Positions 8,895 through 18,212 of a stretch of 64,000 bases of DNA are shown here, piece by piece. The first letter of the stretch is position 1. Each line of letters opens with the position of its first letter. The notes beneath the pieces are model-generated. The model saw only the letters and a list, made by a program, of their open reading frames with translations. It did not search any database and was not told the DNA's origin. This DNA comes from Clostridia bacterium (GTDB lineage: Bacteria > Bacillota > Clostridia > DUPQ01), in NCBI GenBank assembly GCA_046484975.1, contig JAWOHX010000011.1:3611-67610 (forward strand), written 5' to 3'. The position numbers were made by a program, and so were the translations under genes.

Positions 8895-9926
8895 ATGCTT
8901 TTTAAGTTGTTTCGGTTGTTTTTTGGACTCCTTGGATTCCTCACAGGACTCACCGTCGTCCATACAATGATCATCGGCCTTTTTCCGGATGAGTCATTCT
9001 GGAAATACCCGTTGTACGGGTTCTTTGGTCTGGCCTCTGCATTGTTCATGTACTACATCTCAGGCAGGACATTCCTGGCCATCAACAAGCTGATGGGCAA
9101 AGCCCAGCACACCGCCACGAAGCTTTCCTTCTACGATATGCTCATCGGCGGCGTGGGACTGATCGCAGGCCTTGTCATCGCCAACCTCGCGGCCATCCCG
9201 TTTCGGAACATCGACATCATCGGGGGACCCCTTGCAGTGGTGCTCAACATTCTTCTGGGCATGGGCGGCATGTATTTCGCCATTTCAAAAAAAGACGAGA
9301 TCAGCCTGGAGAATTTCAAAGCCAACCGGAAAAGAAGCGGCAGTAAGATCCTGGACACCTGTGCCATCATCGACGGCAGGATCATGGATGTTTTCGAGAC
9401 GGGCTTTCTGGACGGGCTTTTCGTGGTGCCCCTCTTCATCGTCAAGGAACTCCATACCCTGGCGGACAGCGGGGACCCGATGAAACGGAGCCGCGGGAAA
9501 AGAGGCCTGGAGATTCTGGAGAAGCTCAAGGAAAAAATGAAAAGCATGGACATCGTCGAGACAGAGTTCGATGACCTGGCCCTGGACACCGATGTGAAAC
9601 TCATGAAATATGCCAGCAAAACCGCCGGTGCAATCCTTACTGTGGATTACAACCTCAACAAGGTTGCCGCCGTGACGGGAATCCGGGTGCTCAACATCAA
9701 CGATCTGGCGAACAGTGTGAAAAGGATGACGCTGCCCGGGGAGGAAATAAAGATCAACATCGTGAAAAAGGGCAAGGAAAACGGGCAGGGCATCGGCTAC
9801 CTGGAGGACGGGACCATGGTGGTGGCGGACAAGGGGAATGAATTCATCGGGATGGATGTGGAGCTGGTGGTCACCAGTGTCATGCAGACATCCGCCGGAA
9901 GGCTTGTTTTCGCCAGGGTCAAATGA
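8895..9926 (+). CDS. PIN/TRAM-domain membrane protein (YacL-like)
   Basis: N-terminal TM helices, then a PIN domain (ILDTCAIIDGRI...VVPLFIVKELHTLADSGD) and a C-terminal TRAM-like beta domain. Synteny radA-carD-yacL-ispD matches the Bacillus yacK-yacL-yacM neighbourhood. Confidence 0.75.
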   Translation: MLFKLFRLFFGLLGFLTGLTVVHTMIIGLFPDESFWKYPLYGFFGLASALFMYYISGRTFLAINKLMGKAQHTATKLSFYDMLIGGVGLIAGLVIANLAAIPFRNIDIIGGPLAVVLNILLGMGGMYFAISKKDEISLENFKANRKRSGSKILDTCAIIDGRIMDVFETGFLDGLFVVPLFIVKELHTLADSGDPMKRSRGKRGLEILEKLKEKMKSMDIVETEFDDLALDTDVKLMKYASKTAGAILTVDYNLNKVAAVTGIRVLNINDLANSVKRMTLPGEEIKINIVKKGKENGQGIGYLEDGTMVVADKGNEFIGMDVELVVTSVMQTSAGRLVFARVK

Positions 9927-9927
9927 T

Positions 9928-10650
9928 ATGAAGGCAAGTGTCATCATCCCGGCAGCAGGAAAATCCTCCAGGATGAAAAGCCATGGGGACAAATGCTCTC
10001 TCAACATCCAGGGAATACCGGTATTGATCCGGACCATTGGTGTTTTTTTTGCCATGCCGGAAATCCATGAGATAGTGGTGGCCTTGCCAAAAGAGCATAT
10101 GGCCAGGTATGCAGGCATGATCCGGAAACATGGCTTTGCGTCAAAGGTAAAGGCGGTGGCTGGAGCGGATGACAGGACCGGTTCGGTTGCCAATGCCTTC
10201 AGGGTTTTGGAAAAGAATACGGACATGGTACTGGTCCATGACGGAGCCAGGCCCTTTGTCACGGAAAAACTCATCAGGGACTGCATCGGGGCCTGTGCGG
10301 AGCACGGGGCCGCAGTGGCCGGAATCCCGTCAAAGGACACTGTCAAGCTGGCCGATAGCCAGGGGTTTGTCAAAAGTACGCCGGACCGAAGGCAGGCCTT
10401 CCTCATACAGACTCCCCAGGCTTTTCGTTACGGACTGGCGGAAAAAATGATGAAAACAGCATCATCAGGCTTCGTCCGGGCGACGGATGACGCATCACTG
10501 GCGGAAGCGTTGGGGCATCCCGTGTTCATTGTCCCGTCGGATGAGAGCAACATGAAAATAACCACGGATTTCGATTTGGTTGTCGCGGAAGCGGTATTAA
10601 GCCACCGTGATGATGCAGGTGCAGAGAATCCCTTCCCCCCGGCCGAATGA
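9928..10650 (+). CDS. ispD: 2-C-methyl-D-erythritol 4-phosphate cytidylyltransferase
   Basis: MKASVIIPAAGKSSRM (nucleotide-binding loop) ...LVHDGARPFV. About 240 aa. Its last ~18 codons overlap the ispF 3' end on the opposite strand. Confidence 0.9.
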   Translation: MKASVIIPAAGKSSRMKSHGDKCSLNIQGIPVLIRTIGVFFAMPEIHEIVVALPKEHMARYAGMIRKHGFASKVKAVAGADDRTGSVANAFRVLEKNTDMVLVHDGARPFVTEKLIRDCIGACAEHGAAVAGIPSKDTVKLADSQGFVKSTPDRRQAFLIQTPQAFRYGLAEKMMKTASSGFVRATDDASLAEALGHPVFIVPSDESNMKITTDFDLVVAEAVLSHRDDAGAENPFPPAE

Positions 10651-11064
10651 GGTCAGGCCCTCCCCGCTGGTGGCGGTGATCCCCACGCAGGAGACATCAA
10701 TGCCCAGCAGGCAGGCAACGGATTCCCGGATGTTTGGGATATGCGGCGCCAACACGGGTGTGGCGCATTCCATGGAAAAGCTCACATGGGATATGGAATG
10801 GAAGCCCAGGTGGCGCAACCCTTCTTTCAGATAGCAGGAGCTGTCCGTTATTTTCATGTCTTTGCACATCCTGTCGGCGTGTTCCCCGAGAATGATGACC
10901 CCGGTGATACCCGAGACGGCATTGGTCAGGGCATGCAGGACCACATCTGCATCACTGTTCCCCTCCAGGGGCCGGTGCCCCGGGATCTCCACCCCTCCGA
11001 GAAGAAGCTTTTTTTTTGGATCGTCACAGAATTTGTGGCTGTCCTGGCCGATGGCACATTTCAT
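10597..11064 (-). CDS. ispF: 2-C-methyl-D-erythritol 2,4-cyclodiphosphate synthase
   Basis: Starts MKCAIGQDSHKF, with SDADVVLHALTNA and a C-terminal TSFGRGEGI; 155 aa, all IspF hallmarks. Convergent with ispD. Confidence 0.9.
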   Translation of the reverse strand: MKCAIGQDSHKFCDDPKKKLLLGGVEIPGHRPLEGNSDADVVLHALTNAVSGITGVIILGEHADRMCKDMKITDSSCYLKEGLRHLGFHSISHVSFSMECATPVLAPHIPNIRESVACLLGIDVSCVGITATSGEGLTSFGRGEGILCTCIITVA

Positions 11065-11261: not shown

Positions 11262-12572
11262 ATGAAAAAGGGCATCGTGAGATGGATTGCTGCATTGGTG
11301 GTCATATGTTTTTTCTTTATGCCATTGCAAGTGAATGCAAGCCTTATCCGACGCGGAATGGAAAGTGAGCAGGTATACCAGTTACAGCACGATCTTCTTC
11401 AGCTCGGGTTTTTTCATGTGGATCCCACAGGCTATTTCGGAGAAATAACGGAGACCTCTTTGATTGCATTCCAGAAGGCAACCGGTCTGGATCCTGACGG
11501 GATAGCCGGATCGATGACTTTCAGCAAGATCCAGGAAATGATTGCCGGGCAGGCTGTTGTACAGACGGCACAGTCCGCAGTTGAGACCGCTTCCGACAAC
11601 AACAATGGTGAGGCCTTCCTGAGTCAGGGAATGAATGGGGACAATGTCAGGATTTATCAGTCAAAATTGAAACTCCTTGGTATTTTTGATTACAATGCCA
11701 CCGGATATTACGGGGTGATCACCACGGAAGCGGTGCAATCTTTCCAGATGAGCTTCGGGCTGGTTCCCGATGGCAGGATTGGGGAGCGGACGGCGTCCCT
11801 GATCAACACCCTTGTGGAACGGGTGCTGGAGGATTTGTTCCTCCAGGGGGACATGAAGACCAATGCCTCGGGCAGGAGTGTGAGCATCCTGCAAAGGGCC
11901 CTTGCGAGCCTGGGGCATTACGATTACGCAATCACGGGATCCTACGGGGATATCACCGCCAATGCCGTGATAAAATTCCAGGCGGACTACGGACTCGCAA
12001 TGGACGGAATCGCAGGCAAGGAGACGCTGGAGACAATCAGTAAAGTACTGGCCTCGAAGGAAGCCGTCAAAATTGAGAACACCTATGTCAAAGACCTGAC
12101 CATGAGATGGTTTGGCGGAGTGGAGAATTTTTTCAAGCTCGGGGACACCGCCAGGATATATGACGTGGGAACGGGAAGAAGCTTCTACATCAAGAGGACC
12201 TACGGATACAACCATGCCGACGTGGAGACCCTGACCGCCCAGGACACCGCCATCATGAGACAGATATACGGGGGCACCTGGTCCTGGGACAGAAGAGCGG
12301 TCCTGGTGTTTGTTCACGGACATGTCATCGCCGCCTCAATGGCAGGGATGCCCCATGCAGGACGTGATGACCTGGCTGCCAACGCCTGGGTTTCCAACAG
12401 GAGCGGCGGCTACGGGACAGGGGCCAACCTGGATGCAGTGAAGGGCAACGGGATGGAAGGCCACTTCGACCTGCACTTTACCCTCAGCAGGACCCATGCG
12501 ACCAATGCGGTCTGCCCGAGGCACCAGGAAGCCATCCGCCAGGCGGCAGCCTATGCCAGGAATATGTTCTGA
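11262..12572 (+). CDS. secreted protein with 4x peptidoglycan-binding (PG_binding_1) repeats and an uncharacterised C-terminal domain
   Basis: Signal peptide MKKGIVRWIAALVVICFFFMPLQVNA. Four repeats of about 70 aa, each with a G(L/F)..DG..G..T motif. The C-terminal ~150 aa are unassigned (possible cell-wall-enzyme-like domain) and contain a lone Cys in NAVCPRHQ. Confidence 0.7.
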   Translation: MKKGIVRWIAALVVICFFFMPLQVNASLIRRGMESEQVYQLQHDLLQLGFFHVDPTGYFGEITETSLIAFQKATGLDPDGIAGSMTFSKIQEMIAGQAVVQTAQSAVETASDNNNGEAFLSQGMNGDNVRIYQSKLKLLGIFDYNATGYYGVITTEAVQSFQMSFGLVPDGRIGERTASLINTLVERVLEDLFLQGDMKTNASGRSVSILQRALASLGHYDYAITGSYGDITANAVIKFQADYGLAMDGIAGKETLETISKVLASKEAVKIENTYVKDLTMRWFGGVENFFKLGDTARIYDVGTGRSFYIKRTYGYNHADVETLTAQDTAIMRQIYGGTWSWDRRAVLVFVHGHVIAASMAGMPHAGRDDLAANAWVSNRSGGYGTGANLDAVKGNGMEGHFDLHFTLSRTHATNAVCPRHQEAIRQAAAYARNMF

Positions 12573-12584
12573 GGACGAGGGAAC

Positions 12585-13919
12585 GTGATTCATGTTTTTC
12601 AGCAGGACGATATAAGAGTGGTTTTGGATGTGAACAGCGGCGCTGTTCACATTCTTGATGATGTGACTTTTGAACTCCTGAAGAATGCAAAAGACAAAGA
12701 CGACATCCTGGAAGGCCGCATTCTCCTCAGGGACAGGTACAGTGAAATCCAGCTGGATGAGGCCGTGGCGGAACTGGACGCCCTGATGGAGGAAGGCAGC
12801 CTGTTCTCCCCGTTTCCGGATCTGAAGACGGATCGTACGGCGGAAAAACAAGGACTGGATATGAAAGCCCTCTGCCTCCACGTGGCCCATGACTGCAATC
12901 TCCGATGCAGCTATTGTTTTGCGGACAAGGGAAAGTATGGGGACGCCAGGGAAAAGATGCCCCTGGATGTGGCACAGAAAGCCATTGATTTCCTTCTGGA
13001 AAACTCTTCCAGGAAACATGTGGAAGTGGATTTTTTCGGGGGGGAGCCCCTGATGAACTTTGAGGTCGTCAAAAAGACCGTGGAATATGCACTGGAGAGA
13101 CAAAAAGACAGGCAGGTGCATTTCACTTTGACCACCAATGCAACCATCCTGGACGATGAGATCCTTGCTTTCATCAACAGGCACATGGACAATGTTGTCC
13201 TCAGCCTGGACGGACGCAAAGAGACCCATGACAGGATGAGGCGCTACCAAAACGGCAGGGGATCCTATGACCGGGTCCTGGGGAACATCCGCAGGATCCT
13301 GGCTGACAGGAAAAAAGGCTCCTATTTCATCCGTGGCACCTTCACCCGGGAGAATCTGGATTTTTCAGAGGATATCAGGCACCTGGCCGACCTAGGCTTC
13401 CGGGAGATCTCCATCGAGCCCGTCACAGGGGGAGCCTTTGCATTCAACCGGGAGGAGCTGGCAGTCATCCTGAAGGAATACGAGGAATTCGCCATGGAAT
13501 ATGCCCGGCAGGAAGAGTACCGGTTCTACCATTTCAACCTGGACCTTTATCATGGTCCCTGCGTGTACAAGAGGATCAGCTCCTGTGGGGCGGGCTTTGA
13601 ATATGCCGCCGTTGTCCCGGACGGCTCCCTGTACGCCTGCCATCAGTTCGCTGGAATGGAGGCGTTCAGACTGGGGGATGTCTTCAACGGGATACACAAT
13701 ACCGCGCTCATGGAGGAAATGAGGAGCGCCAACGTCCTGAACAAGGAGGAATGCAAGGAATGCTGGGCCAGGTTTTTGTGCTCGGGAGGTTGCCATGCCC
13801 TGGCATATTTCAAAAACGGGGACATCAAAAAACCCGACCAGGACCATTGCACATTGCAAAAGAAAAGGATGGAATGCGCCATGATCATCGCAGCAAGGAG
13901 AGACATGCGGAATGAATGA
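12585..13919 (+). CDS. radical SAM/SPASM-domain peptide-maturase-like enzyme (anSME/SCIFF-maturase family) with N-terminal RRE-like extension
   Basis: CNLRCSYC (CxxxCxxC) at about residue 105, GGEPL, a twitch/SPASM C-terminal cysteine cluster (CKECWARFLCSGGCHA) and about 100 N-terminal residues before the rSAM core. Starts 13 nt after the upstream gene and overlaps the downstream HAD gene. Confidence 0.85.
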   Translation: MIHVFQQDDIRVVLDVNSGAVHILDDVTFELLKNAKDKDDILEGRILLRDRYSEIQLDEAVAELDALMEEGSLFSPFPDLKTDRTAEKQGLDMKALCLHVAHDCNLRCSYCFADKGKYGDAREKMPLDVAQKAIDFLLENSSRKHVEVDFFGGEPLMNFEVVKKTVEYALERQKDRQVHFTLTTNATILDDEILAFINRHMDNVVLSLDGRKETHDRMRRYQNGRGSYDRVLGNIRRILADRKKGSYFIRGTFTRENLDFSEDIRHLADLGFREISIEPVTGGAFAFNREELAVILKEYEEFAMEYARQEEYRFYHFNLDLYHGPCVYKRISSCGAGFEYAAVVPDGSLYACHQFAGMEAFRLGDVFNGIHNTALMEEMRSANVLNKEECKECWARFLCSGGCHALAYFKNGDIKKPDQDHCTLQKKRMECAMIIAARRDMRNE

Positions 13920-14691
13920 TTTGAAAAGCAAGGAGCTTCTCGTCCTGGACATGGACGGGACCTTTTACCTCGAGAACACCCTCATCGACGGAGCACGGGA
14001 GCTGCTGGAGGAAATCGGAAGAAAGGGGAAAAGATTCCTTTTTTTCACCAACAACTCCTCCAAAGCCATGGATGACTATATTCAGAAACTCTCTGACCTG
14101 GGCGTACAGGCCAACCGGGACAGTCTCTTTAGTTCCGGGGATGTCACCATCGGTTATCTGAAAAGACATTGTCCCGGCCAAAAAATCTACCTCATCGGCA
14201 CACGGATGCTGAAAAGGGGATTTGAGAAAGAAGGGATCATCCTGACGGAGGAGGACCCGGATGGGGTGGTCTTGGGATTCGACACGGAACTGACCTATGA
14301 GAAGATATACAAGGGATGTACCTTCATCAGGAACGGGGCCTTTTTCATTGCGACCCATCCGGACGTCAATTGCCCGGTGAAGAATGGGCTGATGCCGGAT
14401 TGCGGTTCCATGATCAAAATGTTCACTGAGTCCACGGGAAAGGTGCCGCTGGTGATGGGAAAGCCCTCCAGGCACACGGTGGAGGCCATCGAGGAAAAAA
14501 CCGGTGTGGGCAGGGACAAAATGGTCTTTGTCGGGGACCGGTTGGAAACGGACATTGCCATCGGGACGGACAACGGTGCCATGTCGGTGCTGGTCCTGAC
14601 TGGAGCCACGGACCGGGCCCTTCTGGACAGGTCGTCCATCCGCCCGGACCTGGTGCGAGACAGCGTGAAAGATTTGATTCCTCTTCTATAA
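13912..14691 (+). CDS. HAD-IIA family phosphatase (NagD/YutF-like)
   Basis: DxD nucleophile motif LVLDMDGTFY, TNNS motif II, and motif III/IV (GK...VGDRLETDI). Confidence 0.8.
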   Translation: MNDLKSKELLVLDMDGTFYLENTLIDGARELLEEIGRKGKRFLFFTNNSSKAMDDYIQKLSDLGVQANRDSLFSSGDVTIGYLKRHCPGQKIYLIGTRMLKRGFEKEGIILTEEDPDGVVLGFDTELTYEKIYKGCTFIRNGAFFIATHPDVNCPVKNGLMPDCGSMIKMFTESTGKVPLVMGKPSRHTVEAIEEKTGVGRDKMVFVGDRLETDIAIGTDNGAMSVLVLTGATDRALLDRSSIRPDLVRDSVKDLIPLL

Positions 14692-17669: not shown

Positions 17670-18212
17670 ATGAATGATTTGATGATGGATGGTGAAAGTA
17701 TGCATAAAGAAGTCAATTACACAGATGTTTTGAAGCAGGCCATGGAGCAACTGGGCAAAGGCGGAGCTTTTCTGACCACTTGTTATGACGGAAAAATCAA
17801 CACCATGACCATCGGATGGGGGACCGCCGGGATCCTGTGGTCCAAACCGGTGCTGACCGTCATGGTCCGTTACTCCAGGCATACCTACAACCTGATTGAA
17901 AAGGCGGGGGAGTTCACGGTCAGCTTCCCGCAACAGGGAGAGTTGGCCAGGGAACTGGTCATCTGCGGGACGAAAAGCGGAAGGAACATCGACAAGTTCG
18001 ACGAATGCGGATTCAAGCCCGTGGAGTCCTTCACAGTCAAGACCCCCTGCATCGACAAATGCGGCATTCATTTCGAGTGCAAGACCATCTACAAGCAGGC
18101 GATGGAACCGGGACTCATCGGGGACAAGGTCAAGGACCTGTTCTATCGGAACAACAATGACTACCATGTGGTATATTACGGGGAAATCACCCGTTGCCAT
18201 GTCAATGATTAA
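17670..18212 (+). CDS. flavin reductase-like FMN-binding domain protein
   Basis: Flavin_Reduct-like split-barrel pattern (LTTCYDGKINTMTIGWGT...). Alternative start at 17700 (MHKEV). Confidence 0.55.
   Translation: MNDLMMDGESMHKEVNYTDVLKQAMEQLGKGGAFLTTCYDGKINTMTIGWGTAGILWSKPVLTVMVRYSRHTYNLIEKAGEFTVSFPQQGELARELVICGTKSGRNIDKFDECGFKPVESFTVKTPCIDKCGIHFECKTIYKQAMEPGLIGDKVKDLFYRNNNDYHVVYYGEITRCHVND

Follow-up and report, generated by a model that had tools for sequence, protein, structure and literature searches.

The window (the whole 64-kb stretch of DNA that was analyzed) carries, within a compact gene array, three same-strand open reading frames for a secreted PG-binding protein, a radical SAM (rSAM)/SPASM enzyme, and a HAD-IIA phosphatase. 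These were much as the preliminary description had given them, their coordinates being confirmed with minor corrections. The features of the array discussed here are the following:

11262..12572, plus strand, open reading frame of the secreted PG-binding protein (436 aa)
12057..12569, plus strand, C-terminal domain of the PG-binding protein (residues 266–436, 171 aa)
12585..13919, plus strand, radical SAM/SPASM open reading frame (444 aa, GTG start)
12585..12860, plus strand, N-terminal RRE-like domain of the rSAM enzyme (residues 1–92), aligning to the RRE of CteB
12894..12917, plus strand, CxxxCxxC radical SAM motif CNLRCSYC (residues 104–111; C104, C108, and C111)
13485..13916, plus strand, bridging region and SPASM domain with the auxiliary-cluster cysteines (Pfam SPASM, residues 334–394)
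13912..14691, plus strand, HAD-IIA phosphatase open reading frame (259 aa)
17670..18212, plus strand, Flavin_Reduct (PF01613) protein, four genes downstream of the rSAM gene

The stop codon of the PG-binding gene is followed by the rSAM start after 12 nt, a spacing as close as previously described although not the 13 nt then given, and the gap contains a Shine-Dalgarno-like site (GAGGGA) and no terminator-like site. At its other end, the rSAM gene overlaps the HAD gene by 8 nt, exactly as first read. Junctions of neighboring genes in the same array measure 9, 13, −5, 12, −8, 16, and −2 nt; as junctions throughout this compact array are similarly short or overlapping, tight spacing is not special to the PG-binding, rSAM, and HAD genes. 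Genes around the rSAM gene were identified as ispD/ispF, HAD, DUF6106, GH18, and MgtC, and the order ispD-ispF-rSAM-HAD-DUF6106-GH18-MgtC is kept in four distinct relatives (L001, L002/L003, L084, and L085) whose rSAM proteins share 52 to 59% identity with that of the window. The DUF6106-like downstream protein (167 aa) was considered as an rSAM substrate and rejected, as it has no cysteine.

The rSAM product, 100% identical to NCBI MAG protein P0001, is an intact enzyme of the ScfB/CteB type. Residues 1 to 438 align to CteB (PDB 5WGG) with 454 bits, the columns of C104, C108, and C111 are invariant in the homologue alignment, and the Pfam models Radical_SAM and Fer4_12 both match. Auxiliary-cluster cysteines C326, C334, C352, C390, C393, C399, C403, C422, and C431 are likewise invariant across 38 homologues and were aligned to CteB. 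The CteB alignment and complete cysteine set bear out the succession of RRE, AdoMet radical core, and SPASM domain proposed in the preliminary description, which had assigned the protein to a combined SCIFF/anSME family and suggested comparison with models of both. The SCIFF maturase model TIGR03974 scored 543.7 bits (cutoff 425), as compared to 801.9 for a SCIFF-linked ScfB (L011) and 490 to 628 for other precursor-less homologues, and “SCIFF peptide maturase” is the name that the NCBI pipeline gives both to the protein and to the clade around it. In contrast, the anSME model TIGR03942 reached 118.6 (cutoff 349.45) over residues 100 to 423 only, a match that does not extend to the N-terminal RRE region; the SCIFF maturase half of the assignment is retained and the anSME half discarded. 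Scores also fell below the cutoff for the QhpD model TIGR03906 (270.4, cutoff 453), for the PapB model NF047865 (288, cutoff 340; match starting only at residue 93), and for NF040492 (496.5, cutoff 855).

In length and three-domain architecture, the window enzyme matches the SCIFF ranthipeptide maturases ScfB, CteB, and Tte1186 (TIGR03974). It is approximately 50% identical to them from end to end and retains all of their Fe-S cysteines as well as the strand motif of the RRE. It differs from them in having no SCIFF in the 64 kb, in belonging to a separate clade, and in its TIGR03974 score (544 versus ∼800 bits). PapB (the freyrasin maturase) and anSME, SPASM enzymes that form thioethers or oxidize Cys/Ser, have the same cluster layout. 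QhpD, the maturase of quinohemoprotein amine dehydrogenase, has a homologous RRE-rSAM-SPASM arrangement and makes thioethers from Cys to β- or γ-carbons (PMC8326336, PMC10114670), but no qhp-like dehydrogenase genes were seen among the identified neighbors of the window enzyme. NF040492, an NCBIfam exception model named “ScfB-related radical SAM/SPASM orphan maturase,” resembles the window enzyme in describing a close ScfB relative without a partner precursor; however, the O-type (precursor-less) proteins tested against it all scored 430 to 561, which does not exceed the 595 bits of a true ScfB and is under the cutoff of 855, and NF040492 therefore describes another, narrower orphan clade.

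Approximately 170 ScfB-homologue loci were compared among the matches listed, the genome-contig matches having 44 to 50% identity to the window protein; a metagenome scan with the window enzyme as single query gave no match above 50% identity. Loci with a canonical SCIFF gene upstream were termed S-type and those with none within 6 to 10 kb O-type, the window being O-type. In the SCIFF system as described, every ScfA comes with a ScfB, and 234 radical SAM genes lie within 500 bp of SCIFF (PMC5300114). An adjoining SCIFF gene (TIGR03973-type, GGCGECQTSCQSACKTSC), usually at a distance of 500 bp or less, was not found in the 64-kb window, nor did a regular-expression search of the whole window in any frame return a SCIFF-like or Cys-rich small ORF. 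The best SCIFF HMM score was 7 bits over the window and 11 bits over 11 O-type loci, versus ∼100 for real SCIFFs. The linked precursor is absent from the window, as initially noticed, and the same holds for the syntenic relatives L001, L002, L084, and L085, where no SCIFF precursor was found. Beside O-type genes there was no conserved small ORF, only random-looking ones. SCIFF is present at 72 of the 80 genome loci among the matches listed, and at most metagenome loci as well. Counted by type, again among the matches listed, a SCIFF within 6 to 10 kb occurs at none of ∼17 O-type loci and at nearly all of ∼140 S-type loci.

The division by precursor linkage is mirrored in the enzymes themselves. 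In a neighbor-joining (NJ) tree of the matches listed, one clade of 123 leaves holds the window enzyme and every precursor-less locus and another of 76 leaves takes in all 72 SCIFF-linked loci. The split between O-type and S-type plus ambiguous loci was recovered in 183 of 200 bootstraps and that between all O-type and all S-type loci in 194 of 200 (92–97%), in trees that are all NJ, without outgroup, and with short internal branches. The window enzyme belongs to the SCIFF maturase lineage, as the earlier family assignment would have it, but falls outside the SCIFF-linked clade (NJ, 183–194 of 200). Cross-validated HMM scores (S minus O) ranged from +18 to +207 for S-type and from −179 to −92 for O-type proteins, with no overlap; CteB scored +133, as an S-type enzyme, and the window enzyme −103.5, about 100 bits lower on the SCIFF-linked HMM than on that of its own clade, whose specific fixed residues it carries. 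The O-type clade has alternative fixed residues, for example, GGCHA versus GGCaAN. An independent metagenome set behaved in the same way: nine loci with S minus O below −30 all lacked SCIFF, and almost all of ∼70 loci above +50 had a SCIFF ORF upstream. Judged by their sequences, the O-type enzymes form a well-separated sister clade of the SCIFF-linked maturases, of which the window enzyme is a member; literature searches found no described precursor-less ScfB clade.

Within-clade conservation of the RRE, core, and SPASM regions is 0.38, 0.65, and 0.60 for O-type and 0.42, 0.66, and 0.62 for S-type enzymes, a similarity that argues for purifying selection on the O-type clade. The DVNSGxxHxxD motif of the RRE is kept in both clades. 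The ratio of between- to within-clade divergence is 0.77 for the RRE and 0.81 to 0.83 for the other domains; divergence of the RRE being proportional to that of the rest, the sequences gave no sign that O-type enzymes recognize a different leader. O-type genes stand alone, and their surroundings change from one lineage to another. A Flavin_Reduct member lies within ∼5.3 kb of the rSAM gene in the window lineage, L004, and L086, and none was found near S-type genes in 150 S-type loci (1.9 Mb) among the matches listed. The Flavin_Reduct proteins share only 22 to 25% identity between lineages, and this recurrent neighbor of O-type enzymes is a weak lead. Some O-type genes are flanked by DUF134, NifX-like, DUF5320, and MinD-Fer4 genes, which are absent from the 64-kb window.

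We consider the window enzyme to be, more probably than any other kind of protein, a stand-alone ScfB/CteB-like thioether synthase that acts in trans on an unlinked substrate. With its chemistry judged by analogy with homologues at ∼50% identity, the N-terminal RRE would dock the peptide leader, the radical SAM core would make the 5′-deoxyadenosyl radical, and the SPASM domain would carry two auxiliary [4Fe-4S] clusters. As proposed for CteB, Tte1186, and QhpD (mechanistic background in PMC8326336 and PMC10114670), a substrate Cys may ligate auxiliary cluster I at its open iron, hydrogen would be abstracted from a side-chain carbon of the acceptor residue, and a thioether crosslink would then form from sulfur to the β- or γ-carbon. 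Since no precursor gene lies within 6 to 10 kb of O-type genes, the gene for the substrate would lie elsewhere, and its product would be modified in trans. That the substrate is a conserved, nonadjacent peptide or protein other than a neighboring SCIFF is slightly favored. QhpD modifies a protein subunit, not a small RiPP, and shows that relatives of ScfB can take such a substrate (PMC8326336, PMC10114670). O-type enzymes occur in Caldicoprobacter, Dehalobacter, Pelotomaculum, Mahella, Anaerostipes, and many uncultured Clostridia, and it is a tentative suggestion that they constitute distinct, widespread RRE-bearing thioether synthases with a conserved non-SCIFF substrate encoded far off.

Another reading, possible although we think it rather unlikely, is that the window enzyme is the genuine SCIFF maturase of its host, with scfA relocated outside the 64-kb window and its product modified in trans, the enzyme working either alone or as a second crosslinking enzyme beside a canonical ScfB. 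The enzyme does pass the TIGR03974 cutoff, and it shares helix-3 residues and the DVNSGxxHxxD strand motif of the RRE with SCIFF-linked enzymes. One S-type group (L115–L124) has its SCIFF ∼3.2 kb from scfB, so adjacency can loosen. Moreover, CteB installs just a single thioether in a peptide with six cysteines, and what becomes of the remaining ones is an open question (PMC8326336). Set against this are the contrast in SCIFF linkage between O-type and S-type loci counted above, the separate O-type clade with its alternative fixed residues, and the company of a ScfB kept by every ScfA (PMC5300114).

The gene downstream was also correctly recognized at the outset as a HAD-IIA phosphatase: TIGR01460 scored 143.5 bits (cutoff 100.15), the LDMDGT motif is present, and Pfam Hydrolase_6 and Hydrolase_like match, while the narrower models TIGR01457 (182.7, cutoff 247.65) and NF053752 (192.9, cutoff 475) remained below threshold. 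A pathway in which the rSAM enzyme and the phosphatase of the overlapping gene would jointly process a phosphorylated small molecule or phosphopeptide, instead of a classical RiPP system, is improbable. The overlap is indeed kept at 8 to 14 nt in L001, L002, L084, and L085, and so across five syntenic loci despite rSAM identities of 52 to 59%; however, it is confined to this one lineage, and no HAD gene was found beside the O-type genes of any other. Overlaps are common between unrelated genes of the array, including in L084 and L085, and the conserved RRE, together with auxiliary clusters resembling those of CteB, speaks for a peptide as substrate. Cotranscription and translational overlap with the HAD gene would stem from the compactness of a housekeeping operon of this lineage.

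The PG-binding protein begins with a putative signal peptide, MKKGIVRWIAALVVICFFFMPLQVNA|S, and its mature form has a single Cys. Pfam gives three stretches of PG_binding_1 (PF01471; 163.5 bits; approximately residues 28–90, 121–182, and 198–258), not the four repeats counted previously. For the 171-aa C-terminal domain there was no match to a Pfam family, and fold searches returned no assignable homologue. In the four syntenic relatives, ispF is followed directly by the rSAM gene after a gap of 118 to 538 nt, without a PG-binding gene, and five loci with homologues of the PG-binding C-terminal domain have unrelated contexts and no radical SAM neighbor. The linkage of PG-binding, rSAM, and HAD genes highlighted in the preliminary description is thus lost in close relatives, the very outcome it had named as counting against a functional trio. 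Cys418, the lone Cys in NAVCPRHQ that it put forward as a modification site, corresponds to an Asp of the family consensus GTNxVDxxHQ and lies outside the conserved columns. That the three genes form such a trio, with the secreted protein modified at Cys418 before export, is accordingly very improbable: a shared strand, a 12-nt gap without a terminator-like site, and a single Cys in the mature protein speak for it, but gaps as small are usual in the array, the protein has no SCIFF-like leader, and gene order in relatives, the homologue loci, and the Asp consensus all run counter to it. Recent insertion of foreign DNA was dismissed as an origin of the PG-binding gene, as its composition (GC3 0.67) is like that of its neighbors. 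The gene is a lineage-specific neighbor without a functional tie to the rSAM gene, and its proximity is accidental, a caution that tight gene spacing in compact operons is a poor guide to function.

SCIFF and ScfB have been treated as strictly paired, and the O-type enzymes, a variant of the known ScfB kind currently annotated as SCIFF maturase, make up a large, well-separated branch without any linked SCIFF. The division into S-type and O-type is clean and can be tested with two HMMs and precursor linkage. If a distal SCIFF is the substrate, O-type enzymes might account for what happens to its remaining cysteines. If another substrate is modified, the SCIFF annotation would be wrong, and many anaerobic Firmicutes would possess an unrecognized conserved post-translational modification, made by a trans-acting system that is invisible to neighborhood-based RiPP mining and mislabeled as SCIFF maturation.

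The radical SAM enzyme (rSAM) of the window was found as the second of three ORFs, all running in one direction.

Features from the ORF listing
11262–12572, + strand: PG-binding protein, 436 aa
12585–13919, + strand: rSAM, 444 aa, with a GTG start and GAGGGA ahead of it
13912–14691, + strand: HAD-IIA protein, 259 aa

These ORFs, and the 8-nt overlap of the HAD start with the rSAM stop, were present as in the preliminary description, while rSAM begins 12 nt, not 13, after the PG-binding stop. Pfam and NCBIfam recognized three PG_binding_1 stretches in the PG-binding protein instead of the four repeats claimed, assigned no family to its final 171 residues, matched rSAM to Radical_SAM, Fer4_12 and SPASM, and identified the 13912–14691 product as HAD-IIA (TIGR01460, 143.5 versus a cutoff of 100.15). 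The reported lack of a nearby precursor was borne out across the full 64-kb window: a six-frame scan returned no ORF resembling SCIFF, the ScfA precursor peptide (criterion, at least 5 Cys per 25 residues), and an HMM built from 69 real precursors gave a best match of 7 bits, as compared to ∼100 bits for true SCIFFs. With ORFs, domains and the absence of a SCIFF-like ORF confirmed, the factual core of the earlier finding holds.

Residues 1–438 of rSAM aligned at 454 bits with the C. thermocellum SCIFF maturase CteB (PDB 5WGG). In common with ScfB and CteB, rSAM keeps the peptide-recognition domain (RRE) strand motif DVNSGxxHxxD, as seen in the homologue alignment, the CNLRCSYC motif, and every SPASM/auxiliary-cluster cysteine (C326, C334, C352, C390, C393, C399, C403, C422 and C431). 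It scored 543.7 bits against the NCBIfam ScfB model TIGR03974 (cutoff 425) and fell below cutoff for the anSME (118.6; cutoff 349), QhpD (270; 453) and PapB (288; 340) models, such that the proposed RRE-bearing SCIFF/anSME-family maturase was retained on its SCIFF side and not as an anSME. The cutoff was likewise missed for the orphan group that NCBI already models as an exception, NF040492 “ScfB-related orphan maturase” (496.5; 855), and rSAM does not belong to it. An identical protein occurs in an NCBI “Clostridia bacterium” MAG under the name “thioether cross-link-forming SCIFF peptide maturase”; the next-nearest relative exhibited only 59% identity. rSAM lacks two defining ScfB-family features: it has no linked SCIFF precursor and is placed outside the SCIFF-linked enzymes.

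This placement was obtained by classifying ScfB homologues at 80 genome loci (matches listed, hence at least 80) and 80 metagenome loci. Of the 80 genome loci listed, 72 had a canonical SCIFF ORF (...GGCGECQTSCQSACKTSC...) just upstream (S-type); those without it were two truncated loci and six others (L004–L008 and L014), the latter also being the best matches of rSAM among these 80. In a neighbor-joining tree of 203 sequences, all 72 SCIFF-linked enzymes formed one clade, and the other, of 123 leaves (O-type), contained rSAM, the top 120 database matches minus six, and eight of nine precursor-less loci, with L014 outside. The split of O-type from S-type plus ambiguous sequences appeared in 183/200 bootstraps, and some split parting all O-type from all S-type in 194/200. 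Two-fold cross-validated score differences (S HMM minus O HMM) did not overlap, ranging from +18 to +207 for S-type and from −179 to −92 for O-type enzymes; rSAM scored −103.5, and CteB, at +133, is S-type. In the independent metagenome set, 9/9 loci with a strongly negative difference were without SCIFF, and of ∼70 loci with a positive one nearly all had it. Internal conservation of the two clades was similar, with fixed differences at few positions (e.g., GGCHA versus GGCaAN after an auxiliary-cluster Cys). A third small group (L014, P0085, P0116 and P0120) had near-equal S and O scores (+11 to +33); L014 (Tepidanaerobacteraceae), its sole locus seen, is also without SCIFF. Among canonical loci, a human-gut group (L115–L124) has its SCIFF gene set apart from scfB, ∼3.2 kb upstream, and L047 has two complete SCIFF cores in tandem within one ORF.

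The preliminary description had coupled rSAM to both neighboring genes. In four distinct syntenic relatives (L001, L002, L084 and L085; L003 is a second contig with the L002 protein), with rSAMs 52 to 59% identical to that of the window, an array was kept from radA, carD, PIN/TRAM, ispD and ispF (opposite strand) to rSAM and on through HAD, DUF6106, GH18/Cu_amine_oxidN1, MgtC, Flavin_Reduct, ddl, racemase, DUF1934, argS and S41 peptidases. The rSAM stop and HAD start overlapped by 8 to 14 nt in every relative. None had a PG-binding gene between ispF and rSAM, and these gaps (118–538 nt) contained neither SCIFF nor a plausible small ORF. The C-terminal domain of the PG-binding protein has 267 homologues, mostly Clostridia proteins of ∼272 aa that contain a single PG_binding_1 repeat; at 0/5 loci inspected was a radical SAM gene adjacent, the neighbors being unrelated. 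The family consensus GTNxVDxxHQ has Asp at the position of Cys418 (NAVCPRHQ), which had been put forward as a modification site. The PG-binding gene resembles its neighbors in composition (GC3 0.67), and since tight junctions run along the whole window array (9, 13, −5, 12, −8, 16 and −2 nt), close spacing is no evidence of coupling. The three-gene hypothesis is refuted by the absence of the PG-binding gene from this position in the relatives. The rSAM–HAD pairing is lineage-specific, no HAD neighbor being found at the O-type loci examined outside the window lineage. Within the same array, the convergent ispD (+) and ispF (−) genes (window 9922–11064) overlap at their 3′ ends by 54 nt, and by about 24 to 60 nt in L001, L002, L084 and L085, an unusual arrangement conserved lineage-wide.

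O-type hosts include Caldicoprobacter spp., Dehalobacter spp., Pelotomaculum, Mahella, Candidatus Syntrophopropionicum, an Anaerostipes MAG and many uncultured Clostridia. Neighborhoods vary with lineage: the window lineage has ispDF/HAD; Caldicoprobacter-like loci have ROK kinase and glycerate kinase; loci of Anaerostipes, Dehalobacter and Pelotomaculum have def/DUF89/DUF134/NifX-like/DUF5320/MinD-Fer4/NifU; and one further locus has rubrerythrin with SDRs. No conserved small ORF flanks O-type genes. In L004, L086 and L087 (Anaerostipes, Dehalobacter-like and Pelotomaculum), a solo ScfB-like gene sits within a recurrent cluster (peptide deformylase, DUF89/ARMT1-like, DUF134, NifX-like [Nitro_FeMo-Co], DUF5320, MinD/CbiA-ferredoxin, NifU and metallo-beta-lactamase), none of whose genes occur in the window. 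A Flavin_Reduct gene (PF01613) lies at most ∼5.3 kb downstream of O-type rSAM in three lineages (window 17670–18212; L004 11785–12276; L086 7443–7793) whereas 150 S-type loci (1.9 Mb) contain none; as the proteins share only 22 to 25% identity between lineages, the recurrence may be fortuitous or may point weakly to a redox partner.

rSAM is an ordinary member of a large, already annotated clade, and no paper describing the O-type clade was found in the literature searched. Conservation of the RRE, the SAM cluster and both auxiliary clusters argues that the chemistry is that of CteB, Tte1186 and QhpD (PMC8326336, PMC10114670), a reading drawn from ∼50% identity, and rSAM is predicted to work like ScfB/CteB. 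A peptide leader would dock on the RRE, a substrate Cys would ligate the open iron of auxiliary cluster I, the 5′-deoxyadenosyl radical would abstract H from a side-chain carbon, and an S–C(β/γ) thioether would form. As no O-type locus has a linked precursor, the substrate must reach the enzyme in trans. The SCIFF system has been described with an ScfB adjacent to each ScfA (PMC5300114), and this pairing, together with the clade separation, mildly favors a substrate other than a distal SCIFF. TIGR03974 gave 802 bits for a linked ScfB (about 800 for SCIFF-linked enzymes) and 490 to 628 bits for precursor-less homologues; because the latter clear its cutoff of 425, most O-type proteins carry the NCBI name borne by the identical MAG protein. 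Product names, where supplied, are nearly always “SCIFF peptide maturase”, with a few entries as “uncharacterized protein”, “hypothetical protein” or “Anaerobic sulfatase-maturating enzyme”. The name “SCIFF peptide maturase” is probably over-specific for the O-type clade.
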